The notes: generated from the sequence alone by a model not told the origin. 64,000 bases of DNA from Patescibacteria group bacterium (GCA_049322215.1 JBMORU010000001.1:129697-193696), one strand, 5' to 3'. Shown: positions 228 to 57,175, counted from the first letter of the stretch. Program-made: numbers and translations.

Positions 228-266
228 CCCTATAGTGTTTACAGAGATTTGTTTTCAATATATAAT
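228..266 (+). promoter_or_regulatory. sigma-70-type promoter with CCCTATAGT element fused to the -35
   Basis: CCCTATAGT-GTTTACA, 17 nt, TATAAT; class A architecture. Confidence 0.65.
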
Positions 267-310
267 TATCAAAACCCAATAAGCATCTGTACGTGCAAGG
301 AGAAAAAAAA

Positions 311-598
311 ATGAAATTTTCGTTAGCTTTGATTAAAAAAGGGCTTGGAAAACTACTCCCAGAAAAAAAACTAAAAGTAACTGGGGTTGTAGAAGTAAAG
401 GAAATGGACAGTAGCATGCTTCAAAGTGACGACCCACCTTTTATGCATGTGACTAAATTAGAAGTACGCAACGGAAGACAGTACGCATATCTAAAAGGGT
501 GGGATGGCGCTGTGCTTGTTTTTAAACGTCCTAACGGCGAGTTTTTTGTTGAGGATGAATACAACAAAAGGCAGGCCTGGGTAACCGGAATCAAATAG
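311..598 (+). CDS. hypothetical small protein (about 95 aa)
   Basis: The track ORF 293..598 starts at GTG. The ATG at 311 is preceded by AAGGAGA (297-303) and the conserved promoter at 228-266. Confidence 0.55.
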   Translation: MKFSLALIKKGLGKLLPEKKLKVTGVVEVKEMDSSMLQSDDPPFMHVTKLEVRNGRQYAYLKGWDGAVLVFKRPNGEFFVEDEYNKRQAWVTGIK

Positions 599-656
599 CG
601 CTAGTATTTCCGTTAAAACTAAAATAAAGCAAATTAAAACATAAGGAGATAAAACA

Positions 657-1160
657 ATGGGTAAGCATCGCCAAATAGATAGCGAAGTAGTACCAGAGTT
701 TTACGCAACAAAAAGTGATAAAAACAGACACAATCTACCTGCGGGCACTGTGCTAGCTATTAGTAGTGAGCACGACTTCCCGGGATATTTCAGTATGGGA
801 TATGTTTCTAAACAGACACCCTTTGGTCAAGGAACCTTCATGGGATTTCACGAAGAAGAACTTCGTAAGGCAACTCCCGAAGAGATCAAAAGAGCAATAA
901 AGACCAAACACCCATACGGCAGAAGATTCCGCCCATATAGCCAAGAAGCAAGTAATGCTGCATGGAATATCTTTTTATCAAAAACGTTCAGCAACTGGAC
1001 TACTGACAGTTCTGACACGCAACCGGTTCTAGATGTGTCTCGCAAACAAATTGAGGACTACGGAAAAGAGGCTGCAGCAAAACACCGTAAAATCCTGCGA
1101 AACTGGGGCAGAATTACACGTAATCAAAGAAACGCAACTATAGAAAAATTGAAGAGATAG
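657..1160 (+). CDS. hypothetical protein (167 aa)
   Basis: ATG at 657 with AAGGAGA 8 nt upstream; a hairpin plus T10 follows at about 1186-1246. Confidence 0.6.
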   Translation: MGKHRQIDSEVVPEFYATKSDKNRHNLPAGTVLAISSEHDFPGYFSMGYVSKQTPFGQGTFMGFHEEELRKATPEEIKRAIKTKHPYGRRFRPYSQEASNAAWNIFLSKTFSNWTTDSSDTQPVLDVSRKQIEDYGKEAAAKHRKILRNWGRITRNQRNATIEKLKR

Positions 1161-1185
1161 TTAAAAAACTCTCAAAACTTTACAT

Positions 1186-1246
1186 CGGCCTGGAGAAATT
1201 GAGGTAGCACATAAACCTACACAATTTTCCAGGCCGTTTTTTTTTT
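1186..1246 (+). terminator. rho-independent terminator (long loop)
   Basis: CGGCCTGG…CCAGGCCG stem followed by T10. Confidence 0.45.
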
Positions 1247-1327
1247 GATTTTGAAAAAAACTCGCCAAAACGCTTTTTGTTGCAACGCTATTGCCTAATG
1301 CGCACCGAATATGCAATATTAACTGCA

Positions 1328-2041
1328 ATGGCCAAGCAAACCAAGAAAGCGTCAAAAACCATCTCATTTATAATACCTGCCTTCAATGAAGAAGCCTCAG
1401 TGTTTCAAACCATTACAACATTACCTTATAAAGAATTGCATTCCCAAGGGTACGAAGTAGAGTGCTTAATAGTAAATAACAATTCTACCGATAATACTGT
1501 TAAATTGGCTCTAGAGGCGGGTGCTCGTGTAGTAAATGAAAAAGTTCAAGGTTATGGTGCTGCATACAAAAAAGGCTTTCAAACAGCAAAGGGTGATATT
1601 TTAGTATGCGGGGATTGTGATGGTACATATCCTTTTGCAGTGACACCAAAACTGGTAGATATATTGATAAACGAAAACCTAGACATTATTACAACCAACA
1701 GATTTGAAAATGGGTTTTTAAAACAGAACAACATGCCTATTGTAAATAGGCTAGGTAACTTATTATTAACGTATGAGGCAAGTTTGCTTTATAACAATGC
1801 AATAAGTGACATTATGTCAGGAATGTGGGTACTAAAAAAAGAAGCCTTAGCAGAAATAAATTTACGCTTTGACGACATGTCATTTTCGCATAACATCAAA
1901 ATCGAAATGATACATCACAAAAAATGCAGGTGGAAACAAATACCAATTGAATATAACGCACGTCAGGGCAGTAGCAAATTAAACGTAGCAAAAGACGGAT
2001 ATCACTGTTTTAAAAACATGCTCGTGAGGAAGTTAACTTAA
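1328..2041 (+). CDS. GT2 family glycosyltransferase, polyprenol-phosphate mannose/glucose synthase (Dpm1/Ppm1/ArnC-like)
   Basis: N-terminal GT-A fold motifs 'ISFIIPAFNEE', 'CLIVNNNSTDNT' and a DXD-like 'CGDCDG'. The start is uncertain: the track ORF begins at TTG 1277, and ATG candidates lie at 1298 and 1328. Confidence 0.75.
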   Translation: MAKQTKKASKTISFIIPAFNEEASVFQTITTLPYKELHSQGYEVECLIVNNNSTDNTVKLALEAGARVVNEKVQGYGAAYKKGFQTAKGDILVCGDCDGTYPFAVTPKLVDILINENLDIITTNRFENGFLKQNNMPIVNRLGNLLLTYEASLLYNNAISDIMSGMWVLKKEALAEINLRFDDMSFSHNIKIEMIHHKKCRWKQIPIEYNARQGSSKLNVAKDGYHCFKNMLVRKLT

Positions 2042-2050
2042 CAAGCATTT

Positions 2051-3499
2051 ATGGCAATTTCAAAAGTAGTAACAGTAATCTGCATAACTGTCATGGTAAC
2101 CTTTGCGGTATTCAATTTATATTTTGGGGTTATACACAATTCACATGTAATTTATGATGAAGCAAATACACTAAACATTATTTCGCAAAGTTACAAAGAT
2201 ATATTTACGCTGCTCTCAAAGGAACAAAACATTCCTGGATACTACTTATTGATAGGAACTGTCTTTAAGGCGTTTAAGTCAGTAACAATTATTAAGCTTA
2301 TAAACTACGTAATTTGGATAGCGTCTATAGTAGCGATTTTTAAGCTACTGAAGACCTACATGTCCAATAACATGGCCTTAATTTTTGTCACTGGATATAC
2401 TCTTATTCCCGGTATAAGCTTTTACTCCTATTTTATTCGTATGTATGGACTTATAGTGTTGCTTGTTATTTTGCTTTTACTATTCTATAAACAATTACTA
2501 GATACTGGAGAAAGTAAGTACCTCATAAGGTTTTTTGTATGCTTAGCGCTCTTAGCAACACTACATGCGCAGTTTGTATTTGTATGGGTAATCTTTTTTT
2601 TCTCATTTATCATTAATTTCTATAAATCTCGAAACTTTAAACTTATATTAATTGCCTTCCTTGCAGTTTTTGTACTATTTTTAATACCCTTTGCATTCAA
2701 AAGTGATCTTATAGATATATATGTGCAAAATGGAATCGCTTATGTAAAAGAACAAAAAGCACCTTACTATACGTTTGTTCATTTGTTGTTTTTTAAATAC
2801 GATAACCCCCTAAGCGTGGTATTGGGATTTACGGTACTTATAACTTTCATTGTATTTTGCCGAAAACATTATAGTAAAACCGAATTTCCTTATTTATTGG
2901 CTATAGTTTTCACCGTTTTAATCCCAATTCATAAAAGCTTTAATCAAACCACAATGCACTATATATTTTTAAGTCCATTAATATATGTGATTGTGGCAAG
3001 GGCACTTGCCTCCGTAAAAACACGGGTTAACATTTTATTTTTCATAATTGCTTTTATTTGGATAAACTCCTTTGTGTTTTCATGGCGATTAATTTTATAC
3101 AAAGATTACATTTTAATTAATGCACTGTGTAAAGAAATAAGCTCAAGTACAAATACCATATATTTAACTAGATTTTATAGCTACGAAGCATTTGCGCATT
3201 GTTCTCGCGAGAACTCCACCAACAAAGCATTTATTATTGCAAACAATAACTATTACGATACATCTAGCTTGTCAAAAGCTGAAGTATTACACATTCAAGC
3301 AGAATTAGGTGGGGATTTTTATAATGATTCGGCAGACGTGTTAACTGTTTACCAAAACTTAAGACAGCTAGAACCTACTAAGCAAATATACTATTTGCCT
3401 GTTTATGACATCCTCAATTTTAATCGCAATGAGAAAGTTTTAAGCACATTAGAAGAAAAAGAACTAAACCCTGTGGTTCCTATTTTTGTCTTACCATAA
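2051..3499 (+). CDS. polytopic membrane glycosyltransferase, GT-C fold (GT39/GT83-like, ArnT/PMT family)
   Basis: 482 aa with more than 10 predicted TM helices and an N-terminal loop 'IYDEANT' (D-E motif). It starts 10 nt after the GT2 stop, the typical Ppm/Pmt arrangement. Confidence 0.55.
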   Translation: MAISKVVTVICITVMVTFAVFNLYFGVIHNSHVIYDEANTLNIISQSYKDIFTLLSKEQNIPGYYLLIGTVFKAFKSVTIIKLINYVIWIASIVAIFKLLKTYMSNNMALIFVTGYTLIPGISFYSYFIRMYGLIVLLVILLLLFYKQLLDTGESKYLIRFFVCLALLATLHAQFVFVWVIFFFSFIINFYKSRNFKLILIAFLAVFVLFLIPFAFKSDLIDIYVQNGIAYVKEQKAPYYTFVHLLFFKYDNPLSVVLGFTVLITFIVFCRKHYSKTEFPYLLAIVFTVLIPIHKSFNQTTMHYIFLSPLIYVIVARALASVKTRVNILFFIIAFIWINSFVFSWRLILYKDYILINALCKEISSSTNTIYLTRFYSYEAFAHCSRENSTNKAFIIANNNYYDTSSLSKAEVLHIQAELGGDFYNDSADVLTVYQNLRQLEPTKQIYYLPVYDILNFNRNEKVLSTLEEKELNPVVPIFVLP

Positions 3500-3632
3500 A
3501 AACGCAAGAAAAGCGGTTTTGAACTCAAGTCAGAAATACTAAGTCCTAGAACTGCATACAAAATATAACTATTGTAGAAGGCTTCAACGTCAAGTAATAA
3601 GTAAATCAACCTCATCTGCGAATCCGTAAATA

Positions 3633-3863
3633 ATGTACAATAACGAGCCTTATGTAGTTCAATTACCTGACGATGAAAATACTGTAATGCTAGTGGACAT
3701 AAATAATGGGAGCGAATACAGTGCTGGTGAAAAGATTTCTATAGAAGAGGCAAGAGAAAGAGATTTACCCACACTAAGAGACCTACTTGTTGGACAAATA
3801 GTAACTGAAATTAAGTGGGTACCCCATAGTATTTACACTTCCCCATATCTACGTTATAATTAA
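3633..3863 (+). CDS. hypothetical small protein (doubtful)
   Basis: ORF only. It has no SD and its 3' end overlaps the conserved promoter at 3822-3860. Confidence 0.3.
   Translation: MYNNEPYVVQLPDDENTVMLVDINNGSEYSAGEKISIEEARERDLPTLRDLLVGQIVTEIKWVPHSIYTSPYLRYN
3822..3860 (+). promoter_or_regulatory. class A CCCYATAG promoter
   Basis: CCCCATAGT-ATTTACA, 17 nt, TATAAT. Confidence 0.6.
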
Positions 3864-3908
3864 CATCAATAATTGTTATCAAAATATCTCAAATAAATGG
3901 AGGCTGAA

Positions 3909-4100
3909 ATGGATCAGTGGAATTGGGATAAAAGAGCAGAGCTGGAATTGGCACGTGCTGAAAATCATTTTCAGTCGCCAACCCCAGACACAGTAAAGTT
4001 AACTGGTGATGAGTCGCGACGTTCGTTTGAATTTCACCTCAAGAAGTGCGCAAACCTAATTGCCCTTTGCGAAATTTTTGCAAGTTACACTAAAACTTAA
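3909..4100 (+). CDS. hypothetical small protein (about 63 aa)
   Basis: Promoter at 3822-3860. A GGAGG SD (3899-3903) favours the ATG at 3909 over the track start 3897. Confidence 0.45.
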   Translation: MDQWNWDKRAELELARAENHFQSPTPDTVKLTGDESRRSFEFHLKKCANLIALCEIFASYTKT

Positions 4101-5134
4101 AAGCTAAAAAAGTCTAACACTCTTGTTATAAATGTTTTTTCGCTACGTAATTCCTCTCCATCTTGTGCATCATAATAAACAGTTGAGGGAATCTCTAATT
4201 CAAAAATACCAAAAAGTTTTTCTGCCTTCTTTGTTTTAAGTTTAAACTCTAGTTTATCTTCTGCATCTGTTTCAAGTTCAACCTCTTCAATATCATCAAC
4301 ATCTTCTGAAGATTCAGCCTTTTCTATAATAGCTTGAGGCATTACACCTAATTTTACGTCGCCCTTAGGAGTTTGTACGTATACACTGCCATCAGCTTCG
4401 TTTACAAATAAAGGAAAGTTTTGCAATCCCGAAATACCCTCTTTTTTAATTAATGTTTCAGTATCTTGGACTCTAATTTTAAGCTTGTTGCCAGTAGAAT
4501 CCTCGGTTTCAGATTCAAAACCTTCGTCACTACCCTCATGCTTTTCTTCTCTTATAAGCTTTCCAGAGGCATCATAGGTTTTAGACTCTATTTTAACTTT
4601 ATCCCCTTCAGTTTCTGTTTTAACAATTGAATAGGTGCCATCACTGTTTTGAATTCTGTTTTGCGTTTTAACTTTATTTTCTAACTCATCTTCCACTTCA
4701 AGTTCGAACTCGTTTTCAAAATCATTGTCATCGTCTTTATCATCATCCTCATCTTCATCTTTGTCATCATCCCTGTCGTCATCTTTATCTTCATCCTTGT
4801 CTTCGTCCTCATCATCCTTATCATCATCTTCGTCCTTGTTGTCATCTTCGTCGTCGTCTTTATCATCCTCATGCTTATTATCTTCTTTAGATTCTTTTTC
4901 GTCATCGTCATCGCCTAAAACATATCCTAAAGGCTGTTCTGACAAAGAATCTTCAGATTTCTTAGGAAGAGCTTTAAAAGAAACAAGAGCAGAAAAAGCT
5001 AAGACTCCTAATACTACAAGTAGCACAGGCAAGTGAAGCATATAAAAAGTAATAGTTGTTTTAGTTTTGCTTGGATTATTTTTCTTAGTGTAATACATAC
5101 TATTAATTTTTAACCTTAATGCCCCATAAGTCAA
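4097..5134 (-). CDS. membrane-anchored polyanionic Asp/Glu/Lys-repeat protein
   Basis: N-terminal TM 'MLHLPVLLVVLGVLAF' followed by about 110 aa of D/E/K-rich low complexity (DDDKDDEDEDKDEDKDDD...) and a structured C-terminal domain. The +strand mirror ORF 4725..5036 is an artefact. Confidence 0.6.
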   Translation of the reverse strand: MTYGALRLKINSMYYTKKNNPSKTKTTITFYMLHLPVLLVVLGVLAFSALVSFKALPKKSEDSLSEQPLGYVLGDDDDEKESKEDNKHEDDKDDDEDDNKDEDDDKDDEDEDKDEDKDDDRDDDKDEDEDDDKDDDNDFENEFELEVEDELENKVKTQNRIQNSDGTYSIVKTETEGDKVKIESKTYDASGKLIREEKHEGSDEGFESETEDSTGNKLKIRVQDTETLIKKEGISGLQNFPLFVNEADGSVYVQTPKGDVKLGVMPQAIIEKAESSEDVDDIEEVELETDAEDKLEFKLKTKKAEKLFGIFELEIPSTVYYDAQDGEELRSEKTFITRVLDFFSF

Positions 5135-5196
5135 ATTTAGTACACAAACAAGCCGCTAAACTTTTGTAATAGTGTAATTTTTGATACCATATTCCT

Positions 5197-5796
5197 ATGC
5201 CAAAAGGTAATGGAAAGCCTATTCCAAAAGTGGAAATAGATTTAAATATATCTCCAGATCAAGTAGAAACATTACTTGGCACATTAAAAGAGCGTTTTGA
5301 GCAAAATATGAACCGCCATAAAGATATTGATTGGGTCAAAGTTCATTCAAAGCTAAAATCTAACCCTAAAAAACTGCAGTCACTTAATGCAATGGAAAGT
5401 ACTGGAGGAGAACCCGACGTTATTGGTTACGATAAAAAAACAGATGAATACCTTTTTTGTGATTGTGCTGAACAAAGCCCTAATCGCCGCAGTATTTGCT
5501 ATGACCGTGAAGCAGAAAAACTAAGAGAAAAAAAGGGAGTTTATCCGGGAGGCAATGCTGTAGAACTTGCCGAAAAAATGGGAATAGAACTTTTAAACGA
5601 AGATCAATATAGAGATCTTCAAAAACTTGGGGAATTTGACACTACAACTTCAAGTTGGATTAAAACCCCTGAAAATATTAGAAAACTAGGTGGCGCTCTT
5701 TTTTGTGATCGCCGCTATGACACAGTTTTTACCTACCACAATAGTGCTGAGTCTTTTTATTCCGCTAGAGGATTTAGAGGGTTACTAAGGGTTTAG
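5197..5796 (+). CDS. DUF4256 domain protein
   Basis: Near full-length similarity by recall to the DUF4256 family (…MESTGGEPDVIGYDKKTDEY…KLGGALFCDRRYDTVFTYHN…ARGFRGLLRV). No SD, so possibly leaderless. Confidence 0.65.
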   Translation: MPKGNGKPIPKVEIDLNISPDQVETLLGTLKERFEQNMNRHKDIDWVKVHSKLKSNPKKLQSLNAMESTGGEPDVIGYDKKTDEYLFCDCAEQSPNRRSICYDREAEKLREKKGVYPGGNAVELAEKMGIELLNEDQYRDLQKLGEFDTTTSSWIKTPENIRKLGGALFCDRRYDTVFTYHNSAESFYSARGFRGLLRV

Positions 5797-5812
5797 TCGC
5801 CATATGTTATTG

Positions 5813-5851
5813 CCCTATAGTATTTACACCTGCCCTACTTCAATATATAAT
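5813..5851 (+). promoter_or_regulatory. class A CCCYATAG promoter
   Basis: CCCTATAGT-ATTTACA, 17 nt, TATAAT. Confidence 0.65.
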
Positions 5852-5891
5852 ATCTCTCACAAACAAATAATCTAAATGTAAGGAGAATAAA

Positions 5892-6215
5892 ATGTCAACT
5901 GATGGCACTGATCACAATGGATGGCATGCGTATCGCCATATCATTAGTGAGGTAAATCTGATTTGGTATTTAGACTGGTATGCTAGACCTGACGAAAATA
6001 CTACTAACTATTTAATTACACCAAAACGGCGTAAGCAAATAGTTAGAATTATCGAAAAAAAATACAAGGTAAAACTTAAACCTGAAGATAAAGCCTGGAT
6101 TTTGGAAAAAATGAATTCACCCCGACATTTGTGCACCGACTTTCCAAACCGGTTTAACCCACGGCACTACCCGTCTTTGACCTCGGATTTACCACCGGAA
6201 AACAAGACTAAGTAA
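5892..6215 (+). CDS. hypothetical protein (107 aa)
   Basis: TAAGGAGA SD; conserved promoter at 5813-5851. Confidence 0.6.
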   Translation: MSTDGTDHNGWHAYRHIISEVNLIWYLDWYARPDENTTNYLITPKRRKQIVRIIEKKYKVKLKPEDKAWILEKMNSPRHLCTDFPNRFNPRHYPSLTSDLPPENKTK

Positions 6216-6258
6216 AAAAAGTAAAAGACACAACTAATCAAAAAATAAGGAGACAAAA

Positions 6259-6498
6259 ATGTCACAACATTGGACTGAAACCGAAAAAGGTAAACAGTTA
6301 ATTGAAAGCGCTTTTAAAGCTGCTAACTTACCAGAAGTACAAGAGAACGAGCTTGAAACTGGGACATACACAAACATGCAAATTGCGAAAATGTTTGATG
6401 ATCCTGCTGAGCTAATTTCGCTACTTATGGCTTTACCAAAAGGTGGAGGCAATGCATCTCGCCGCTCGATTTTGAGTTTTGCTGTAGAAATGCGCTAA
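6259..6498 (+). CDS. hypothetical protein (79 aa)
   Basis: AAGGAGA SD; co-directional with 5892 and likely in the same operon. Confidence 0.55.
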   Translation: MSQHWTETEKGKQLIESAFKAANLPEVQENELETGTYTNMQIAKMFDDPAELISLLMALPKGGGNASRRSILSFAVEMR

Positions 6499-6519
6499 TT
6501 CACCAAAAAGGAATAGTAA

Positions 6520-6747
6520 ATGTACGAAAACATGACATGGATCAACAACAGGCTGGATGAAATCGCAAAAGCTACAAATCCACGGCAAGCTTTAGCTGAG
6601 TGGTTTAACAGCTTATCAAGAACACAACGCGAAAAAGTGTTTATCTTCGCTGGGTGGTTAAACCCCAAAGCATACTGCGACCACAGAATGCAGTTAGAAG
6701 GTGACAACATTTTTGACGAATTGTGTTCTTCGTTAAACATTTCTTAA
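6520..6747 (+). CDS. hypothetical protein (75 aa)
   Basis: AAGGAA SD at 21 nt spacing after the 6259 gene. Confidence 0.5.
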   Translation: MYENMTWINNRLDEIAKATNPRQALAEWFNSLSRTQREKVFIFAGWLNPKAYCDHRMQLEGDNIFDELCSSLNIS

Positions 6748-6840
6748 GCCTTCTTTGCTAGCACTAATGCGCCCTTGTAAGCGATTGAAAAGTATCAGAA
6801 AAACTTGACTACTTAATATCGTTTACCGGGGTGCCTTTTT

Positions 6841-7431
6841 TTACATTTGTAAAGCAACAAACCCCTTTTCAACATCACTAAAATAATATCCTTGATACTT
6901 CTCCAACAAAGGAATGTTAGTTTTTAGTAAATTCGAAGGTGAAAATGTTACATAACTATTAAACCTGTGCTCCAAAATAGTTTCTTTTGCAGGGCATTCT
7001 TCTAACACTCCAGATAAAATAAGGTTTTTGTGAGGTAGTACTATTTCAATTAGCCTACTATCAAAGTAATCTATGTTTTTTATAAAAACTACACGTTCTT
7101 TTATATCAATCAAATTGCTAAAAACATACCTAAAAAGTGTTGTATCTCCACTTTTTATTAAAATAGCTTGTTTAGTTAAAAATTTCTGTAAGTCTTCTTC
7201 TGTAGCAACAATTCCTACGTCATTTTTATATTCTTCTACTTGATTTAAAAAATTTTCGGTAGCCATAGGAAACGCAGTTAAAAACAACACCTTATGCCCT
7301 TGCAAAAATAAATTAGTAATTAGTGAAATACTAAAAGCAGATACACCCGATTTCTCTTGACCAACTAATAAACAAGGAAGCTCATTTAGCGAAAAATTAA
7401 ATTTTTTATTATTAAGTAATATACTATTCAC
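6841..7431 (-). CDS. hypothetical protein with a degenerate P-loop-like segment
   Basis: 196 aa; 'LLVGQEKSGVS' resembles a RecA/KaiC-type Walker A without the canonical GK[ST]. Confidence 0.45.
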   Translation of the reverse strand: MNSILLNNKKFNFSLNELPCLLVGQEKSGVSAFSISLITNLFLQGHKVLFLTAFPMATENFLNQVEEYKNDVGIVATEEDLQKFLTKQAILIKSGDTTLFRYVFSNLIDIKERVVFIKNIDYFDSRLIEIVLPHKNLILSGVLEECPAKETILEHRFNSYVTFSPSNLLKTNIPLLEKYQGYYFSDVEKGFVALQM

Positions 7432-7490
7432 AATTAAATAGTATGTTGGATTTATTGTTAATTCAAGGTGAGTTGGCGTAATCTCTACAA

Positions 7491-7527
7491 CCTATAGTAT
7501 TGACGGCTGGCAATATTCCCGTATAAT
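7491..7527 (+). promoter_or_regulatory. class A CCCYATAG promoter
   Basis: CCTATAGT-ATTGACG, 16 nt, TATAAT. Confidence 0.6.
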
Positions 7528-7582
7528 TCTTGTAACTACAAATTCAAATAAATACCCAACACATAAAAAAAGGAGACTGAAA

Positions 7583-7990
7583 ATGAGCAATATTGCTAAA
7601 ATAAGCAAGGTTGTCAAATCGCTATGGCTAGCAGGATGCTTAAATTTAATGATACTTTCGCTGTATAAGTATTTCTCTAATAGGCAAGAAAACAGCGAAT
7701 TTTTGCTCCTTGCTAGCATTTGGACTATTTCATTTGTTCTGGTTGCGTATTCTCTCATCGAAGAATTCATTGTCGAAAGAGGATTTTCTCGCGAAAAGGC
7801 ATTCGAAAAAGCTGCCAAGTACATTAGGCAAGAACATGGGGAAACAGTGGGGCATCAGGAAGGTTACTACACTTTCTACGAGCACTCCAACAGTCATTCC
7901 CTTGATATCTACTTTGGTGAAACGGCCTATGTGTGCAACGTAAACAATCGCACAGGTGAAGTAGAAATAGTACGTATAACCAAACGATAA
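7583..7990 (+). CDS. small membrane protein (135 aa)
   Basis: AAGGAGA SD; promoter at 7491-7527; two TM segments; terminator at 8023-8080. Confidence 0.6.
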   Translation: MSNIAKISKVVKSLWLAGCLNLMILSLYKYFSNRQENSEFLLLASIWTISFVLVAYSLIEEFIVERGFSREKAFEKAAKYIRQEHGETVGHQEGYYTFYEHSNSHSLDIYFGETAYVCNVNNRTGEVEIVRITKR

Positions 7991-8022
7991 AAAAGAGAAT
8001 AAACATCACTTAGCTTATCTAT

Positions 8023-8115: not shown

Positions 8116-8154
8116 CCCCATAGTGTTTGCCGCGTGTATTTTTTATTGTATAAT
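8116..8154 (+). promoter_or_regulatory. class A CCCYATAG promoter
   Basis: CCCCATAGT-GTTTGCC, 17 nt, TG-TATAAT. Confidence 0.6.
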
Positions 8155-8794: not shown

Positions 8795-8832
8795 ACTTAT
8801 AGTTTACATGCTGACTCTACCGCTGATATAAT
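8795..8832 (+). promoter_or_regulatory. class A promoter (variant ACTTATAGT)
   Basis: ACTTATAGT-TTACAT, 17 nt, TATAAT. Confidence 0.5.
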
Positions 8833-18296: not shown

Positions 18297-18375
18297 TTAA
18301 TAGGTTCAGGGGTATATTGGTACCTGAAATATAAAATATTTTGTCGCTGAAAGCAAATTAATAAACAGTCTGTGA

Positions 18376-18413
18376 CCTATAGTGTTTACACGCAAGGAAG
18401 ATTAAAGTATAAT
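18376..18413 (+). promoter_or_regulatory. class A CCCYATAG promoter
   Basis: CCTATAGT-GTTTACA, 17 nt, TATAAT. Confidence 0.65.
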
Positions 18414-19319: not shown

Positions 19320-19357
19320 ATTTTATCAAATGACACAATAATATTCAAACTATAGGT
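19320..19357 (-). promoter_or_regulatory. class A promoter on the minus strand for the PadR-like gene
   Basis: Reverse complement reads CCTATAGT-TTGAAT, 17 nt, GATAAAAT. Confidence 0.55.
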
Positions 19358-21575: not shown

Positions 21576-21612
21576 ACTATAGGTTTACAAAAACCACTCT
21601 GTCTATTATAAT
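21576..21612 (+). promoter_or_regulatory. class A promoter (ACTATAGG variant), possibly a shared divergent site
   Basis: ACTATAGG-TTTACA, 17 nt, TATAAT. The palindromic core lies between divergent genes 19399..21504(-) and 21679(+). Confidence 0.55.
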
Positions 21613-23273: not shown

Positions 23274-23279
23274 TTATAA

Positions 23280-23315
23280 CTATAGGTTGTTTAAACACCT
23301 TCCTCCTGATATAAT
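23280..23315 (+). promoter_or_regulatory. class A promoter (ACTATAGG variant)
   Basis: CTATAGG-TTGTTT, about 17 nt, TATAAT. Confidence 0.55.
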
Positions 23316-26614: not shown

Positions 26615-26676
26615 AATGCGAATCTCCTATTTGTGTTAGATACGCAAATCATACACTTTTTTTGTAAAAATTGCAA

Positions 26677-26739
26677 CCTATAGTGTTGGATACCACAGTG
26701 CCCCATAGTGTTTATCTTTTGAATTTTTATTGATATAAT
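26677..26739 (+). promoter_or_regulatory. tandem CCTATAGTG / CCCCATAGTG elements plus -35/-10
   Basis: Two motif copies 24 bp apart. The second is fused to GTTTAT, 17 nt, TATAAT. Confidence 0.6.
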
Positions 26740-27824: not shown

Positions 27825-27863
27825 GCCTATAGTTTTGACTGAAAAAGATTTTGATAGTATAAT
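27825..27863 (+). promoter_or_regulatory. class A CCCYATAG promoter
   Basis: GCCTATAGT-TTTGACT, 17 nt, TATAAT. Confidence 0.65.
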
Positions 27864-29220: not shown

Positions 29221-29258
29221 CCCTATAGTTTGACTAGCCGGACACTTTACCCTATAAT
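29221..29258 (+). promoter_or_regulatory. class A CCCYATAG promoter
   Basis: CCCTATAGT-TTGACT, 17 nt, TATAAT. Confidence 0.7.
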
Positions 29259-30807: not shown

Positions 30808-31188
30808 ATGGATAAAAATAAAGTGGTTTACGCAATATTTGTGCTTTTAATTCTTTTATCCATACCTTTAGCTTTAACTATTATAACCGCAAATGAATTA
30901 GCCAACTGCTATGAGCAATCTTCGCAAATATTAACTATAGAAACCGAAAGAATGCTTACAGAAACAGACGGTATACCACAAAAAGGAGACATTTGCAGCA
31001 CTGGCTACACAATTACTAAAGATTTAATGTCTTGCGTGAATAAAGTTGATAAAAAATCTTTAATCCCCTTGCCTATAATATATAAAGCAACCAATTTAAT
31101 TCAAAAAAGCGAAGTTAATCCTATATACGCAGCACAAAAGCACAATGAATTTTGTGGTGAATATAGCGAGTATTTCATAAACCTATAG
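30808..31188 (+). CDS. small membrane-anchored Cys-containing protein
   Basis: ORF with an N-terminal TM segment. The track start 30802 is TTG. Confidence 0.4.
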   Translation: MDKNKVVYAIFVLLILLSIPLALTIITANELANCYEQSSQILTIETERMLTETDGIPQKGDICSTGYTITKDLMSCVNKVDKKSLIPLPIIYKATNLIQKSEVNPIYAAQKHNEFCGEYSEYFINL

Positions 31189-31219
31189 CATTTACACTTC
31201 GAGTGTTATGGGGTATAAT
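31183..31219 (+). promoter_or_regulatory. class A CCCYATAG promoter
   Basis: CCTATAGC-ATTTACA, 17 nt, TATAAT. Confidence 0.65.
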
Positions 31220-31732: not shown

Positions 31733-31770
31733 CCCCATAGCTTTGCAATAATTCCAAAAAACGCTATAAT
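31733..31770 (+). promoter_or_regulatory. class A CCCYATAG promoter
   Basis: CCCCATAGC-TTTGCA, 17 nt, TATAAT. Confidence 0.65.
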
Positions 31771-37642: not shown

Positions 37643-37671
37643 ATTTTATCATACTATGGGGTATATAACAA
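37643..37671 (-). promoter_or_regulatory. class B promoter on the minus strand (element inside the spacer)
   Basis: Reverse complement reads TTGTTA, spacer containing CCCCATAGT, then TG-ATAAAAT. Confidence 0.5.
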
Positions 37672-38480: not shown

Positions 38481-38879
38481 GGAAATTTATTAATTATTAC
38501 CGCTCTTTTAATTATTGGAGTTGTAGTTGCAATTACTGGTGGAATTTACTATGTAAAAAATATAAAACCTGCACCCATACCTACAACACAGCAAGTTAAA
38601 TTAACAACAGAACAGCCTAAAGCAAAAATAAAAAAAGATAACCCAAATTCATTAATTGGAAGAAATACAAGAGAAATTACAGAAGCAATAGGCGCACCTA
38701 ACGAATCTACTGCAAGCGTAAAACTTAATAAAGCTATATGGGTATACTTAACTAACGAAATTTCAAAAGATGCTATTTTTGTATACCTGCACGATACAGA
38801 TGTAATTAATATTAAAGAGGCTAGATTTGAAGGAAACTTTGATAAAGAAACATGGCTTTTAACTCCTTACTTTGAATAA
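38472..38879 (+). CDS. signal-anchored protein (135 aa)
   Basis: N-terminal TM; divergent from 37683. Confidence 0.45.
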   Translation: MRQGNLLIITALLIIGVVVAITGGIYYVKNIKPAPIPTTQQVKLTTEQPKAKIKKDNPNSLIGRNTREITEAIGAPNESTASVKLNKAIWVYLTNEISKDAIFVYLHDTDVINIKEARFEGNFDKETWLLTPYFE

Positions 38880-38899
38880 TTACCCTATAGATTTATAAT
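38872..38899 (+). promoter_or_regulatory. class B promoter (element in the spacer)
   Basis: TTGAAT, 16-nt spacer containing CCCTATAGA, then TATAAT. Confidence 0.55.
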
Positions 38900-40395: not shown

Positions 40396-40424
40396 TTTAC
40401 ACTAACCTATAGTAGTAGTATAAT
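40396..40424 (+). promoter_or_regulatory. class B promoter (element in the spacer)
   Basis: TTTACA, 17-nt spacer containing CCTATAGT, then TATAAT. Confidence 0.55.
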
Positions 40425-52540: not shown

Positions 52541-52547
52541 TTATATT

Positions 52548-53489
52548 TCAAAAATTAAGATAATTATATGCCTCACTAGAAAGTTTTTCCATGAAATTTA
52601 ACGCAGAAGCACGCCCTGTATCTGTTGTGTCAGCAACAAATACAGTAATCAAATATGGCTTATTTGGAACATACACAATACCACTATCTAAATATAAACC
52701 TTCTTGATTTTTTTCACCAAATTTATGAGCAAAAACCACATCGGAAGACAACCCACTATTAAGATATTCGTCATAGGGTGATTTTGATAGCCAAAAAAGC
52801 ATTTGTTGAGATGATTCTCTATTTAAGTAACTAGAAGTGTATAGGGCGCGAAATAGCCTAGAGTACTCCTTAGCTGAAATCTCTCCGGCTTCGTTAAAAA
52901 GTTCTTCTAATCCTAAAGTATCACCAAATTGAGTTACGTCGTTTAGCGATAAATTTTTATATAAAATATTATGCGCAGTGTTATCTGAATTAATTAACGA
53001 TTGTTGAAGTAATTCGTCTAAAGTAAATGTTGCTCCGGGTTTACTTTTATATAAATCACCCCAACCTGAATCTCTATCTTCTTCTGTTAAGTTAAATTCA
53101 GTATCCATCGCAAGTACACCCTCCTCTATTTTTTTCATATACATCATAGCTACTGGAACCTTAGTTAAACTTGCAGGATTAACGCGCATTTCGGGATTTA
53201 AAGAAATGTTAGAGCCTGTATTAAGAAACTCAATATATACAGAAATTGAGGCGTCTGGATAACTGCTTAAAAGGTTTACTGCGTATTCTCTTAAAGGTTT
53301 TAAATTAACAATAAAATACTTTTGCTCTATAAAACTTCGTGAAAAATCTATAAATGGATATGGGTTAGTTAGTGAGGTAGCCTCAAAACTTTTTCTATAG
53401 TGCGAAGATACATACAAAGTAGTAAAGTTGCTCAATAGCAAAACTATAATTATAATTATGTACCCTCTATTTCTTAATTTCATAGGCAT
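52548..53489 (-). CDS. signal-anchored serine hydrolase, class A beta-lactamase / D-Ala-D-Ala carboxypeptidase-like
   Basis: 'ASLTK' (SxxK) and 'SDNTAHNIL' (SDN) motifs; N-terminal TM. Confidence 0.55.
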   Translation of the reverse strand: MPMKLRNRGYIIIIIVLLLSNFTTLYVSSHYRKSFEATSLTNPYPFIDFSRSFIEQKYFIVNLKPLREYAVNLLSSYPDASISVYIEFLNTGSNISLNPEMRVNPASLTKVPVAMMYMKKIEEGVLAMDTEFNLTEEDRDSGWGDLYKSKPGATFTLDELLQQSLINSDNTAHNILYKNLSLNDVTQFGDTLGLEELFNEAGEISAKEYSRLFRALYTSSYLNRESSQQMLFWLSKSPYDEYLNSGLSSDVVFAHKFGEKNQEGLYLDSGIVYVPNKPYLITVFVADTTDTGRASALNFMEKLSSEAYNYLNF

Positions 53490-53571
53490 ACTGAATAATA
53501 GAGTATTCTGGGGCGGGTGGGAATAGACATGTTCTTACAAGTGGCAATGATGTATTATTTTAGTTGAAGAT

Positions 53572-54390
53572 ATGAATGAAGTTACTACAAGTCCTACAAC
53601 TCCTATAATTTCTATTGAAGATGTACATAAAAGCTTTCAAGTTGGAATACAAGATATTCAAATACTCAAAGGAGTAGATGTAAAAATAAATTACGGAGAC
53701 TTTGCGGTCATTATTGGACCATCAGGCTGCGGAAAATCTACACTTCTGCACATTTTGTTAGGACTGGAGCCTCCTACTAAAGGCATAGTTAAATTTTTGG
53801 GATCAGACTTATATGCCGGTACTAATGAAGATACTCGCTCAGACTTTAGAAAAAAGCACATAGGAATGGTATATCAACAAGCCAACTGGATCAAATCTTT
53901 AACTGTGATTGAAAACGTATCGTTTCCGTTATTACTACTAGGAATAGGAAAACCTAAAGCTATGGCTAAAGCTTATGAAATGTTAAAAAAAGTTAACATG
54001 CAAGATTGGGGAGATTACATACCTACAGAGCTATCTGGAGGACAACAACAAAGGGTGGCTTTAGCAAGAGCATTAATTAATAACCCCGAAATTATAATTG
54101 CAGATGAACCTACAGGAAACCTGGACTACGAAGCCGGTCAAAATATAATGACGCTTTTGACAAACTTAAATAATGAATTTGGAAAAACCGTAATTATGGT
54201 AACGCATGACTTAGAATACATTTCTTATGCAAAAACTACAGTTAGACTTTTAGACGGAAAAGTATTAGGCATTTACAATGAAGGTCAAAAAGATAAATTA
54301 ATGGAAGAACTAAAATTTAAACGACTGGGTGATATGAAAGCAAAATTACAAGAAAGTGAAAACATAACACCTGCACCAGCAACTAACTAA
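53572..54390 (+). CDS. ABC transporter ATP-binding protein (MacB/LolD/FtsE-like)
   Basis: Walker A 'GPSGCGKST', signature 'LSGGQQQRVALARAL', Walker B 'IIIADEPTGNLD'. Confidence 0.9.
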   Translation: MNEVTTSPTTPIISIEDVHKSFQVGIQDIQILKGVDVKINYGDFAVIIGPSGCGKSTLLHILLGLEPPTKGIVKFLGSDLYAGTNEDTRSDFRKKHIGMVYQQANWIKSLTVIENVSFPLLLLGIGKPKAMAKAYEMLKKVNMQDWGDYIPTELSGGQQQRVALARALINNPEIIIADEPTGNLDYEAGQNIMTLLTNLNNEFGKTVIMVTHDLEYISYAKTTVRLLDGKVLGIYNEGQKDKLMEELKFKRLGDMKAKLQESENITPAPATN

Positions 54391-54503
54391 ATTAGCTAAT
54401 ATCATTTAACCCCATAGCAAACTAATGGTGCAGCTTTCCAACTAAAAAATTTGTGATACAATTTAAATCCACAAAACCTATAAGAAAAAGGAGGTGACCA
54501 CAA

Positions 54504-54743
54504 ATGAGAGACGTAGCTATTACAAGTAGGTTTCCATGGATTGACGATTTGCTGGTACTTCTACAAATCAAGTATGGCAGACCTGAACCTGGGTTTCGAC
54601 TGTTTTACTCAGATGCAGAAGTAGCTGAGCATACGGGACTCGTAGCAAAAGTAGCACATGCGCGTGGGCTGGTAAAACCCGCTAAAGATGGCTTTGGTTG
54701 GGTTCCAACGCAAAAAGGCAAACACATGTTTTTGCGCTACTAA
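54504..54743 (+). CDS. hypothetical protein (79 aa)
   Basis: AAAGGAGG SD; extended -10 TGTGATACAAT at about 54452-54462; terminator at 54788-54834. Confidence 0.5.
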   Translation: MRDVAITSRFPWIDDLLVLLQIKYGRPEPGFRLFYSDAEVAEHTGLVAKVAHARGLVKPAKDGFGWVPTQKGKHMFLRY

Positions 54744-54787
54744 ACCCATGAAGTGAGGGAGTACCATGAAGTACGTCAAAGTTAAAA

Positions 54788-54834
54788 AGAGGTGATAGTG
54801 TTAAACAAACAAAGCATTTTCACCTCTTTTATTT
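54788..54834 (+). terminator. rho-independent terminator
   Basis: AGAGGTGA…TCACCTCT stem followed by a T-rich tail. Confidence 0.55.
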
Positions 54835-54844
54835 ATCTAGCAAT

Positions 54845-55579
54845 TTAAGACATAACAGAATTTTCAACAATTTCTATTTCTTTATTCTCCACATTTTTCA
54901 TGCGTTGAAAACCTAAAAGAGAAAACACCAAAACAGAAGAAACCACAATACCTACAAAATTTACTAAAAACATATCAAAAGCACCTTTCATAACAGCTAC
55001 GTCCCCTTGAGAAAGACCTATGCCCACAACACAAAGCGGGGGTAATAAGGCTACCGCAACAGCCACGCCGGGCAATGTAGCTGATAACTTAGGTTTTGCC
55101 CAACAATATGTTGCAGCTAATCCTGATAGCAGTGCTATATGTACATAAAACCAACTTGGTTCAGTTCTTTGTAATATCTCACTACTTTGAAGGGTTTCAA
55201 TACCAGAGTAGGAAGAAACTAAATACGATAAAAACAAAACAATAGTAACCGATCTAATTATTGCCCAACTTGAACGAACTAAAGATTTAAAACTTACCGT
55301 TACAAACCCTAAACCTAATGCCAGTATAGATGTAAGAAGTGGTGTAATTAGCATACCTCCAATCACAATAGACCCATTGTTGCTTAATAAACCAAAGGTA
55401 GTTATAAGCGTAGAAATAATTAATAAAACAAAATAATCAAAATTTGTATTACTATCATCTATTAAACGCGATACTGCCTCTTTTTTTTCGGTAAAGTTCC
55501 TGCGTAAAGATGTATTTATATAAAAACCATGTAGGAACTTAACTTTTTCTTCAGCAAACAGCTTTGACACTATGTTCAT
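54845..55579 (-). CDS. polytopic membrane protein (possibly DUF389-like)
   Basis: Hydrophobic throughout. The track start at 55717 would overlap tal, so an internal ATG (MNIVSK) was chosen. Assignment is tentative. Confidence 0.4.
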   Translation of the reverse strand: MNIVSKLFAEEKVKFLHGFYINTSLRRNFTEKKEAVSRLIDDSNTNFDYFVLLIISTLITTFGLLSNNGSIVIGGMLITPLLTSILALGLGFVTVSFKSLVRSSWAIIRSVTIVLFLSYLVSSYSGIETLQSSEILQRTEPSWFYVHIALLSGLAATYCWAKPKLSATLPGVAVAVALLPPLCVVGIGLSQGDVAVMKGAFDMFLVNFVGIVVSSVLVFSLLGFQRMKNVENKEIEIVENSVMS

Positions 55580-55614
55580 ACAATAATAATACCAGAGCAT
55601 GCTAAACTTTACCC

Positions 55615-56502
55615 ATGCGACCTGCAAACCTGAAAACCAAGATATTTTTAGACAGTGGGGATCCACAAGAAACAAAGCAAGCTTTAGATTTATTAGGGTT
55701 TTTAGATGGACAAACAACTAATCCAAGCTTGGTTGCAAATAAACTAAAGAAAAATAACGAAGGTATTAAACTAAGCGCACAAAACCTATTGAGTGAATAT
55801 AAAAAAATAGTTCAGGAAGTATCAGTATTAATACCAAAGGGCTCAGTTTCAATAGAAGTGTATGCAGATAAAAACTCAACAGCACAACAGCTATTTGTAC
55901 AAGGTCAAGAAATGTTTAGCTGGATACCCAATGCACACATTAAATTTCCAACTACAACCGCAGGTTTAGAAGCAGCTCAAAAAGCTATACAAAATAAAAT
56001 GAGAGTCAATATGACTTTAGTATTTACTCAACAACAGGCTGCCGCAGTATTTGCAGCAACAAGAGGGGCCAAATTTGGAGAGGTATTTGTATCCCCTTTT
56101 ATTGGACGTCTCGACGATACCAATGTAAATGGGATGTCTTTAGTTGATAACATTTCAAAAATGTATAAAACCCAATCCGAAAATCATGTGCAAGTTTTAG
56201 CAGCAAGCATAAGAACGCTACCTCACTTTTTATATAACATTTATGCAAAAACAGACATAGTAACAGTACCGTATGAATTACTAAAAAAATGGTCAGACCT
56301 GGGAAAGCCGTTACCGGGGGAAAATATTAACATAGCCGCTTTTGAAGATGAAAAAGTTTATTTAAAGGCTGAAAAGCTAGAGAATATTCCTTTTGAGGAT
56401 CTAAATTTAGAGAATACATGGCAAGAATATAGTATTAATCACCCTTTAACAGATACAGGCTTAGAAAAATTTGCTGCCGACTGGAATAGCTTAATTTTAT
56501 AA
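55615..56502 (+). CDS. tal: transaldolase / fructose-6-phosphate aldolase family
   Basis: 'KIFLDSGD…GQTTNPSLV' signature and Schiff-base Lys context 'IKFPTT'. Confidence 0.8.
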   Translation: MRPANLKTKIFLDSGDPQETKQALDLLGFLDGQTTNPSLVANKLKKNNEGIKLSAQNLLSEYKKIVQEVSVLIPKGSVSIEVYADKNSTAQQLFVQGQEMFSWIPNAHIKFPTTTAGLEAAQKAIQNKMRVNMTLVFTQQQAAAVFAATRGAKFGEVFVSPFIGRLDDTNVNGMSLVDNISKMYKTQSENHVQVLAASIRTLPHFLYNIYAKTDIVTVPYELLKKWSDLGKPLPGENINIAAFEDEKVYLKAEKLENIPFEDLNLENTWQEYSINHPLTDTGLEKFAADWNSLIL

Positions 56503-56530
56503 CTTTTAATAAGCAGATGCAGGGCTCAGT

Positions 56531-56559
56531 TTGCAATATACACCCTATAGTATTATAAT
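56531..56559 (+). promoter_or_regulatory. class B promoter, copy 1 of a 48-bp duplicated promoter
   Basis: TTGCAA, 17-nt spacer ending in CCCTATAGTAT, then TATAAT. Confidence 0.6.
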
Positions 56560-56605
56560 GTAGTTAGAGTCAAATATATACCATTGCATACATAAGGAGA
56601 ACAAA

Positions 56606-56989
56606 ATGCAAAAAGTAACCAGATCAATTTTATTGGTATCCGCTCTGCTGATCGCCACCGCGGGAATTACATTTGCTGCAACGGCACTCAGCTTGACCAA
56701 CGTTCGTAATGCTTCGCAACTAATCTGGAACAACCGGGAAGACCTGACCCAACAGATTGTAGAAGATGCCATCGAAACCATTGATTCTAACGCCGACAAC
56801 GTTGAATACGTGGTTAGCACCCATGACTACGGGTTTGGCGAAACAGTCCAGGAAGTTGAAGTAACCTTTGAGACCACAGGCACCTGGAAGTATAGCCGCT
56901 ATGCATACTACCTGAAAGGTTTTGGTATTTTCAACCTCAAGGTATACAACGGAAACGCCACGTTAAGCATCTTCATGAACGAACGTTAG
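56606..56989 (+). CDS. small secreted protein (127 aa) with atypical GC-rich codon usage
   Basis: Signal peptide 'ILLVSALLIATAGITFA'; CATAAGGAGA SD; promoter at 56531-56559; terminator at 56996-57052. Confidence 0.6.
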   Translation: MQKVTRSILLVSALLIATAGITFAATALSLTNVRNASQLIWNNREDLTQQIVEDAIETIDSNADNVEYVVSTHDYGFGETVQEVEVTFETTGTWKYSRYAYYLKGFGIFNLKVYNGNATLSIFMNER

Positions 56990-56995
56990 CCACAT

Positions 56996-57052
56996 CGGAG
57001 GGTTTAGACTTGTTTAAAATCAAACTAACAAGCCTAACCCTCCCTTTTTTTA
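56996..57052 (+). terminator. rho-independent terminator
   Basis: GGAGGGTTTAG…CTAACCCTCC stem followed by T7. Confidence 0.7.
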
Positions 57053-57146
57053 TCTTAAACTTTTATATACATAAAAAAGGCATTGATTCCTAAAATTTTA
57101 TATAAAAATATACATAGTATTACTTAGTTAGCACGAGTGTTTATAG

Positions 57147-57175
57147 TTGCAATATATACCCTATAGTATTATAAT
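57147..57175 (+). promoter_or_regulatory. class B promoter, copy 2 of the duplicated promoter
   Basis: Near-identical to 56531-56578: TTGCAATATATACCCTATAGTATTATAATGTAGTTAGAGTCAAAT. Confidence 0.6.

Follow-up and report, generated by a model that had tools for sequence, protein, structure and literature searches.

The DNA analysed here, a 64,000-nt stretch from a Patescibacteria group bacterium (GCA_049322215.1 JBMORU010000001.1:129697-193696) referred to below as the window, has a G+C content of about 35% throughout. Its recognisable proteins comprise a 1969-aa LamG/FN3 surface protein, an FtsX/MacB permease, PMT-type glycosyltransferases, GH1/GH5/GH113 hydrolases, PGI and a transaldolase. 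For the last of these, Roizmanbacteria and Daviesbacteria supply the best named relatives (55–62% identity), and sequence comparison places the window in a Microgenomates-like lineage of Patescibacteria, the candidate phyla radiation (CPR). Many small genes of the window are preceded by promoters that share a short element, which in its looser form reads (A/C/G)CC(C/T)ATAG(T/C) and marks 28 predicted sigma-70 promoters. The same element recurs at promoters of many other CPR genomes, and we propose that it may be the operator of a conserved DNA-binding protein, most likely a repressor.

The element and its promoters in the window

A sequence-only reading of the window had reported more than 25 promoters with the element, at least 21 of class A and five of class B. 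Reading of every upstream region yielded 28, comprising 22 class A sites (core 1–2 nt 5′ of the −35 hexamer, 16–18-nt spacer, TATAAT-like −10), five class B sites (element inside the spacer) and one odd site, at 54410, where the element lies 25 nt 5′ of the −35. The class B sites were those already listed (37643 on the minus strand, 38872, 40396, 56530 and 57147). All class A sites fall within 228–31,770 and the class B sites within 37,643–57,175; in the flanking DNA, reached for about 12 kb, there is one further class A site on the left and one site of each class on the right.

The exact 9-mer CCCYATAGY occurs 14 times in the window against 1.21 copies expected (maximum of 4 in 100 shuffles). 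Thirteen of the 14 copies are on the plus strand, and all 14 lie in an intergenic promoter context. The loose composite C[CT]ATAG-N1-2-TTK...-N16-18-TAnnnT was seen 22 times versus 0.5 expected (maximum of 4 in 200 dinucleotide shuffles), and a consensus-promoter scan of positions 1–20000, made independently, found the element at 8 of the 9 sites scoring 11 of 12 matches. Clearly, the element is real, promoter-bound and statistically overwhelming. The class A hexamers are near-consensus (TTTACA or TTGACT with TATAAT). A repeat search groups the promoters into two families (D4 and D6) that are only 66–76% alike over 41–53 nt, because the spacers differ and just the element and the hexamers match. 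The sites are listed below, with the genes behind them; ORFan stands for an orphan open reading frame (ORF).

Class A sites
228..266 (+), CCCTATAGT-g-TTTACA-17-TATAAT, ORFan 311-598
3822..3860 (+), CCCCATAGT-a-TTTACA-17-TATAAT, ORFan 3909-4100
5813..5851 (+), CCCTATAGT-a-TTTACA-17-TATAAT, ORFan 5892-6215 (and 6259, 6520)
7490..7527 (+), ACCTATAGT-a-TTGACG-16-TATAAT, ORFan 7583-7990
8116..8154 (+), CCCCATAGT-g-TTTGCC-17-TATAAT, ORFan 8186-8470
8795..8832 (+), weak variant, ACTTATAG-TTTACA-18-TATAAT, ORFan 8865-9047
11128..11165 (+), TCCCATAGT-TTTGTT-17-TATAAT, ORFan 11208-11408
11776..11814 (+), CCCTATAGT-a-TTTACA-17-TATAAT, ORFan 11852-12148
14099..14135 (+), flipped, GCTATAGG-TTGTTA-17-TAAAAT, ORFan 14177-14425
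14514..14552 (+), CCCCATAGT-g-TTGACT-17-TAAAAT, ORFan 14596-15102 (only homologue is itself)
15187..15223 (+), CCCCATAGC-TTGACT-16-TATAAT, ORFan 15251-15598
17252..17288 (+), flipped, GCTATAGG-TTGTGA-17-TATAAT, ORFan 17327-17626
18375..18413 (+), ACCTATAGT-g-TTTACA-17-TATAAT, ORFan 18446-18628
19320..19357 (−), ACCTATAGT-TTGAAT-17-TAAAAT, membrane-anchored PadR-like ORFan 18693-19274
21576..21612 (+), flipped, ACTATAGG-TTTACA-17-TATAAT, ORFan 21676-22101
23279..23315 (+), flipped, ACTATAGG-TTGTTT-17-TATAAT, ORFan 23347-23892
26648..26684 (−), flipped, ACTATAGG-TTGCAA-17-TATGAT, ORFan 26165-26614; first of a supposed tandem pair
26701..26739 (+), CCCCATAGT-g-TTTATC-17-TATAAT, gene 26777-27349
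27825..27863 (+), GCCTATAGT-t-TTGACT-17-TATAAT, ORFan 27899-28522
29221..29258 (+), CCCTATAGT-TTGACT-17-TATAAT, ORFan 29296-29817
31181..31219 (+), ACCTATAGC-a-TTTACA-17-TATAAT, ORFan 31264-31614
31733..31770 (+), CCCCATAGC-TTTGCA-17-TATAAT, ORFan 31809-32186
Class B sites
37643..37671 (−), TTGTTA-tataCCCCATAGTatga-TAAAAT, lipoprotein-like gene 36998-37606
38872..38899 (+), TTGAAT-aattaCCCTATAGAtt-TATAAT, receiver-domain protein 38944-39267
40396..40424 (+), TTTACA-ctaACCTATAGTagtag-TATAAT, protein with three transmembrane segments 40457-40777
56530..56559 (+), TTTGCA-atatacaCCCTATAGTat-TATAAT, secreted ORFan 56606-56989; identical in a strain variant
57147..57175 (+), 98% duplicate of the 56531 promoter (45 nt), gene 57226-58041
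Odd site
54410..54462 (+), CCCCATAGC 25 nt 5′ of TTTCCA-16-TACAAT, before ORFan 54504-54743
Context
63458..64000 (−), primary sigma factor, C-terminal 180 aa (regions 2.4-4.2), no extension

Five class A promoters (14099, 17252, 21576, 23279 and 26676) carry GCTATAGG or ACTATAGG, previously described as minor variants. Both are the reverse reading of ACCTATAG(C/T), that is, a single asymmetric 9-mer that has been flipped, with its core still 1 nt from the −35 and the distance between the two unchanged. At 17252 and 23279 the opposite strand offers no gene for a forward reading of the element, and flipped copies at equal distance were found in four loci from other genomes. What had been described as a tandem pair at 26676/26701 consists of two divergent promoters with one copy each. 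Of the two fixed positions assigned to the element, that of class A was upheld (core 1–2 nt from the −35) and that of class B was not (core-to-−10 gap of 0–6 nt). The T variant has a 6-bp palindromic core with asymmetric flanks, and the C variant breaks the dyad symmetry; the perfect palindrome CCTATAGG is missing from the window and was met in a single locus elsewhere (L124).

If the spacer is taken as 17 nt and transcription as starting 7 nt after the −10, the centre of the core falls at about −40. On the predicted transcription start sites (TSSs) the centre lies between −39.5 and −41.5 and abuts the −35, as class II activator sites do. The class A copies span about −45 to −37 and so share with UP elements (−40 to −60) the location directly upstream of the −35; class B copies lie elsewhere. 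About 10 of the 22 class A leaders open with ACAAA 5–9 nt after the −10, and the shared leader start ACAAA(T/C)(C)AA (for example at 5858, 14558, 18420, 27870 and 29266) is probably the transcription start together with the initial transcribed sequence. Class A leaders are rich in A and C, and their last part is AAGGAG, after which comes the ATG.

Two further promoters deserve mention. The only consensus TTTACA-17-TATAAT promoter with a Shine-Dalgarno (SD) sequence and an ATG that is without the element lies at 17699-17727, before a 74-aa ORFan (17765-17989). The segments 56531-56575 and 57147-57191, 45 nt long and 98% identical, precede two unrelated genes and represent the only recent promoter copy in the window.

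The genes behind class A promoters are uniformly small (60–207 aa in 22/22) and are real coding sequences, with frame 0 scoring best in every case. None of the 22 reached the Pfam cut-off, compared with 25 of 38 genes without the element in their own upstream region (Fisher p = 1.9e-7), and several of the 13 element-free genes without a Pfam hit lie downstream of a class A gene in one unit. One sub-threshold PadR match was the only trace of a family among the class A proteins. Two of these proteins, searched against 5.8 billion proteins, returned only themselves, and a third (gene 26777) returned four distant homologues. The G+C content at third codon positions (GC3) is 0.37 in class A genes versus 0.25 in housekeeping genes (Mann-Whitney p = 1.9e-7). 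Both contrasts agree with the earlier view that the element marks a distinct set of orphan or accessory genes, and the upstream regions of pgi, tal, the glycosyltransferase (GT) genes and the gene for the ATP-binding cassette (ABC) ATPase were indeed free of it. The further statement that many of the marked genes encode secreted or membrane-bound proteins suits class B, with a membrane segment predicted for 4 of 5 genes, and does not suit class A (6 of 22).

The class A genes (228-32186) form a 32-kb island of single-gene cassettes, whose GC3 suggests foreign origin or a different codon selection. Integrase, phage or plasmid markers were not found in the island, and PHROGs returned one methyltransferase match for ten island proteins. 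Most enzyme and housekeeping genes of the window (15697, 32263, 33904, 40869, 41640, 58127 and 60021) look leaderless, with TAnnnT 6–10 nt before ATG or GTG; leaderless-looking enzyme genes (GH1, GH113, GTs, pgi, ROK kinase) have a weak −35, no SD sequence and no element. The ORFan cassettes, unlike these, have 30–45-nt leaders with a perfect AAGGAG, so that two distinct expression architectures exist in one genome. The gene for the 1969-aa protein (46631-52540, minus strand) contains, from 49854 to 51900, a tandem array of about 12 units of approximately 150–153 nt with 60–100% identity; they are protein repeats of this giant LamG/FN3/Kelch-like surface protein, and the local G+C content rises to 43%.

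Conservation of the element in Patescibacteria

The composite was searched as its reverse complement, ATTATA-N16-18-WGTMAA-N0-1-ACTATRGGG, in one-genome-per-species bacterial and archaeal contigs. At least 116 stretches matched, with about 13 estimated by chance over the whole collection. Record titles among the matches listed were WWE3, Saccharibacteria, Dojkabacteria/WS6, Daviesbacteria, Curtissbacteria, Gottesmanbacteria, Roizmanbacteria, Levyibacteria, Woykebacteria and unnamed Patescibacteria. Scattered other taxa, about eight among the matches listed, correspond to the chance level, and named Parcubacteria, ABY1 and Gracilibacteria were not among these matches. About 21 matches were titled 'uncultured Gammaproteobacteria', and at least four of them share 56–70% identical proteins with named CPR loci. 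Six loci and some 15 others from third-party annotation (TPA) metagenome-assembled genomes (MAGs), titled Gammaproteobacteria or Pseudomonadales, are syntenic with Microgenomates, WWE3 and Saccharibacteria loci, and the titles of these CPR-like MAGs appear to be wrong.

The element is thus no peculiarity of this genome. As judged from these matches and from the orthologous promoters described below, it is conserved over a large part of Patescibacteria, including Microgenomates, WWE3, Dojkabacteria/WS6 and Saccharibacteria, which answers the earlier question about related genomes. It is not universal: in the loci of three relatives retrieved with the transaldolase (49 kb), no promoter-associated copy occurred. 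The only near relative (L117) is 98% identical and therefore uninformative for footprinting. In 28 of the 117 promoters seeded by the composite, an ATG follows TATAAT at 4–12 nt, which would give leaderless mRNAs; this placement is an independent indication that the seeded promoters are working promoters.

An unbiased test of conservation was possible with a single gene. Clustering of the ORFs of the seeded loci revealed the same gene in 12 of 116 loci, encoding a secreted protein of 190–230 aa with an LPxTG-type sorting signal and located by a sortase-domain protein gene, rho and obg. We take it to be a probable major surface protein. An alignment of the LPxTG protein (A3), and not the DNA motif, was then used to fetch 80 loci from Joint Genome Institute (JGI) metagenomes, which gave 53 distinct upstream regions. 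TTGACN-17-TAnnnT was present in 51 of these 53 promoters (TTGACA in 92% of the 51), and C[CT]ATAG stood 2–3 nt 5′ of the −35 in 48 of the 53, with CC on the distal side in 47 of the 48. The element carries 1.2–1.7 bits at six positions, approaching the better-conserved −10 positions; among these are the invariant C,C at −9/−8 and G at −3 relative to the start of the −35. Beyond the element in the upstream direction, and over most of the spacer, the information drops almost to zero bits. Since the surface proteins compared are only 40–60% identical, the retention of the element at their promoters shows purifying selection. In about half of the surface-protein promoters the −10 is preceded, at a distance of one base, by another block, t-a-T-A-(G/A)-G, which is an inverted copy of the element. 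The two copies, 23 bp apart from centre to centre, therefore bracket the −35; such a second inverted copy is rare at other targets. The leaders from promoter to LPxTG start codon (about 40–250 nt) contain locally conserved stretches such as TTTCCCTGCC and ATTAAGTTTGGTAA, had no Rfam match in the loci tested and may represent a new regulatory leader.

The position of the element was also surveyed beyond the seeds. Among 343 unselected strong promoter-like sites of CPR loci, seeds excluded, the 7-mer lay at −10 to −8 in 15 and inside the spacer in about 14 (after removal of three artefacts), where about one would be expected. CPR-wide, class B is about as common as class A, and the spacer copies, which may point either way, directly adjoin the −35 or the −10. 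Gene 26777 offers a case within one family, with the element at −40 in two orthologous genomes and in the spacer in three. Of its homologue groups, one has the element at −40 (L206), another a one-mismatch copy abutting the −10 (L205), a third a copy just after the −35 (L207) and a fourth the arrangement TATAGG-T-TACAAT (L209).

The 81 proteins encoded behind seeded promoters have few Pfam hits and a median length of 176 aa, and 39 of them contain a membrane or signal segment. Four loci show arrays of successive element promoters before small unrelated ORFs, like the island of the window. A second recurrent target, found in eight loci, encodes a small protein (79–90 aa in the two examples read) that combines a signal peptide, the motif GHVPVDT(G/A) and a membrane segment at the C-terminus. 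Its neighbours are a VanY-like gene and a small sortase-like one, and the protein may be a pilin or a minimal substrate of sortase.

A few observations on RNA genes were made in the same loci. In seven loci from Saccharibacteria and Dojkabacteria, a boxA-like CTGCTCTTTAATAA lies 20–70 nt after the −10 and is followed by long leaders and genes for small membrane or secreted proteins, not rRNA; Rfam gave no match at these leaders, and no known RNA families except tRNAs were found in the window and 20 loci. A tRNA-Ile with the anticodon UAU occurs in three loci, one from WWE3 and two from MAGs labelled 'Gammaproteobacteria'. This anticodon is unusual, as bacteria normally use a lysidine-modified CAU for that tRNA-Ile. 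At 10 of 54 tRNA genes, in ten loci, an element promoter lies within 70 nt downstream of the tRNA 3′ end, and one overlaps it. This may hint at insertion of islands beside tRNA genes, with an enrichment over expectation that is modest and biased by ascertainment.

Possible reader of the element and probable sign of its action

The element was found at the promoters of none of the 54 tRNA genes in loci of element-bearing lineages; a TGn-type extended −10 is common among these promoters. The full rpoD gene, available in L124, encodes an ordinary sigma-70 of 431 aa with regions 1.1 to 4, a standard region 4.2 and no extra domain, so that a sigma factor with an additional domain was discarded as the reader. 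The tRNA promoters and housekeeping genes without the element, the canonical sigma-70, the flipping and the spacer copies together favour a separate sequence-specific protein, which seems to fit better than a general polymerase-intrinsic element. The transcription-factor site suggested by the sequence-only reading is to this extent retained, and activation from −45 is the less likely half of that proposal. The PadR-like protein encoded at 18693, named there as a candidate regulator, had no homologue but itself among 5.8 billion proteins and therefore cannot serve a phylum-wide element. Homologues of the window's class A and B proteins were not found in the 116 seeded loci, and Pfam detected no helix-turn-helix domain in the element-free small proteins of the island. 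Families that do recur near the sites are the LPxTG protein, a sortase-domain protein, Rho, Obg, GT2 and, several kb away, a tyrosine recombinase.

The literature on CPR and Saccharibacteria promoters, TSSs and sigma factors yielded no description of the motif, in agreement with the earlier remark that no such family is known. It is not mentioned either in a 2025 core-promoter survey, whose data include 188 start sites of TM7x, and in literature text the composite sequences were unmatched and the 9-mers matched T7 primers only.

That the element lacks a function, as a compositional artefact, the remnant of a mobile promoter cassette or a phage/T7-type fragment, is hardly credible. Its reverse complement ACTATAGGG does equal T7 promoter positions −6 to +3, the promoters 56531 and 57147 are recent duplicates and the class A genes look foreign in GC3. 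Against this stand the 22 composites where shuffles gave 0.5, the retention at orthologous promoters of diverged proteins and the spacers, which are unrelated and show that the promoters are not copies; a repeat or miniature inverted-repeat transposable element (MITE) was rejected on the same ground, 56531 and 57147 being the only true duplicates. In 2.9 million viral contigs there were two chance-like matches, both inside genes of phages with 29–31% GC. Similarity to T7 is confined to ACTATAGGG, 9–10 of 23 positions match, the part upstream of it is simply the −35 hexamer in reverse, and the orientation leads away from the genes. An alternative sigma factor or a sigma/anti-sigma regulon with −35 recognition extended upstream, also raised earlier, would explain a coherent gene set with a common upstream sequence. 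It is very improbable, as both the hexamers and their 17-nt spacing (TTGACA-17-TATAAT) match the primary sigma factor, rpoD is ordinary, the element also occurs flipped or shifted to the spacer, and no second sigma gene is present in the 76 kb examined. Somewhat better placed, and still quite unlikely, is a polymerase-intrinsic 'extended −35' or G+C-containing analogue of the UP element, read by the alpha subunit's C-terminal domain (alpha-CTD), sigma or a stably bound accessory subunit, and used to build the strongest promoters. The element occupies the proximal UP subsite (−46 to −38) and co-occurs with consensus −35 and −10 hexamers, 17-nt spacing, an A start, an unstructured A/C-rich leader and a perfect SD sequence, i.e. 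a maximal-expression profile, and its most conserved target is the probable major surface protein. However, in the same lineages the element is lacking at 54 of 54 tRNA promoters and at most promoters of housekeeping genes, it seems to function when flipped, and it is equally frequent in spacers, where neither alpha-CTD nor sigma region 4 could read it; the sigma-70 has no extra domain. A polymerase-attached accessory subunit as the reader, which would make the element a new class of core promoter element, is less likely than the phylum-wide silencing switch discussed below.

If such a protein exists, its effect has to be inferred from the placement of its sites. The sequence-only reading proposed, as one of two options, a factor that activates from −45 and represses from the spacer. 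Such a dual regulator would activate at about −40 by contacting sigma region 4 or alpha-CTD in the manner of class II activators. Class A copies keep 1–3 nt from the −35 in the window, in the seeded loci and in the 48 orthologous promoters, they take the classical place of class II sites (core centred at about −40) and class B lies where a bound protein would clash with the polymerase, all of which such a regulator would explain. Nevertheless, we consider it unlikely. The class A core promoters are near-consensus, unlike typical activator-dependent ones, orthologues switch between −40 and the spacer, which would invert the sign of regulation, and the surface-protein promoter holds both positions at once. 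The same observations favour a repressor, because near-perfect core promoters should not need an activator, because an activator site moving into the spacer would reverse its effect while an operator can move, and because paired copies around the −35 are the usual design for tight repression. The CPR-wide parity of spacer and upstream copies points the same way, and flipped copies at an unchanged distance suggest a symmetric reader. In the window, 27 of the 28 sites overlap or abut DNA contacted by the polymerase (−45 to +10), the exception being 54410, and the position of the element varies among targets (upstream, spacer-proximal, spacer-distal and, in the surface-protein promoter, as paired inverted copies). 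We give about an even chance to the element being the operator of a widely conserved DNA-binding protein that acts as a repressor.

According to this repressor model, (A/C/G)CC(C/T)ATAG(T/C) would be the operator of a putative conserved sequence-specific protein and would be set flush against the hexamers contacted by the polymerase in near-consensus sigma-70 promoters, with the site either 1–3 nt 5′ of the −35 or within the 17-nt spacer, or with two inverted copies that occupy both positions. The bound protein would occlude sigma region 4 and the spacer, and intrinsically strong promoters would thus be kept off until some signal removes it. In many CPR lineages the genes under such control would include that of the major surface protein anchored by sortase, and in the genome studied here dozens of ORFan cassettes of one gene each.

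Several points weigh against the repressor model. The upstream copies are held 1–3 nt from the −35, as contact with the polymerase, whether for activation or for direct recognition, would also give; a steric account, in which the site lies as close as possible without changing the hexamer, is possible. The ratio of upstream to spacer sites in the window is 22 to 5, not 1:1, and the element is asymmetric, with the perfect palindrome CCTATAGG almost never used. The ORFs clustered from the 116 seeded loci contained no recurrent DNA-binding family near the sites. Promoter strength and TSS positions were deduced from rules established for E. coli and Bacillus, and the taxonomic spread is a sample of at least 116 stretches.

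Significance and relation to known systems

Patescibacteria make up a large share of bacterial diversity, and almost none are cultured; regulators are scarce in them, and roughly every second gene is without known function. A 9-bp site offers a handle, from sequence alone, by which co-regulated genes can be recognised in thousands of uncultured genomes. The site is found at the promoter of the major sortase-dependent surface protein and across whole ORFan islands, nominates candidate genes for host interaction and points to a missing global regulator. The scope is wider than first thought, with conservation on the scale of a phylum and a conserved surface-protein target. The marked promoters are also ready-made, strong and probably switchable parts for new genetic tools in Patescibacteria. 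In a more speculative version, which we hold to be rather doubtful, one conserved protein would keep dozens to hundreds of ORFan cassettes per genome, each a maximal-expression unit with a foreign-looking composition, together with the sortase-anchored protein, switched off across the phylum and release them jointly, for example on host contact. If true, this silencing switch would be a master on/off programme for an episymbiotic lifestyle with almost no other transcription factors.

Among known promoter elements, the UP element of rRNA promoters shares with the element described here the location of the proximal subsite (−46 to −38) and the consensus hexamers. UP elements, however, are A/T tracts read in the minor groove and typical of stable-RNA promoters, whereas this element, which the earlier reading had likewise set apart from them as C-rich, has an invariant C, C and G and is missing from 54/54 tRNA promoters. 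Class II activator sites, such as those of CRP and FNR at −41.5 or of lambda cI at OR2, are likewise centred at about −40 with a fixed spacing over many promoters. CRP, FNR and cI promoters differ in having poor −35 hexamers and dyad sites of 16–22 bp, compared with a consensus −35 and a 9-bp site that is also found in the spacer and moves there in orthologues. The pair of copies 23 bp apart in the surface-protein promoter resembles the interrupted inverted repeat of CIRCE/HrcA over a consensus promoter, but CIRCE has the form 9-N9-9 and belongs to chaperone genes, and only one copy is present at most of the targets described here. MqsA sites (ACCT-N2-4-AGGT) share their form with the idealised palindrome ACCTATAGGT, which is no more than a lead. 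Unlike in the MqsA palindrome, both halves almost never occur together (CCTATAGG), and the C variant CCCCATAG does not fit.

The closest known working analogy is the global repression of promoters by KorB and KorA of IncP plasmids such as RK2. There, class I operators of KorB (OB) precede the −35 by a few bp, and those of KorA are placed at the −10. As in that system, a short site stands a few bp 5′ of the −35 at many strong sigma-70 promoters, with a second position on the −10 side, and, as with KorB, a single global repressor is proposed to silence an accessory gene set. KorB sites differ in being perfect 13-bp palindromes of plasmids that are read by a ParB-family protein, while the element is an asymmetric chromosomal 9-mer spread across a bacterial radiation, with the same sequence at both positions. 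In general kind, then, this new regulatory site is a known one, and its sign of action probably differs from the first guess.

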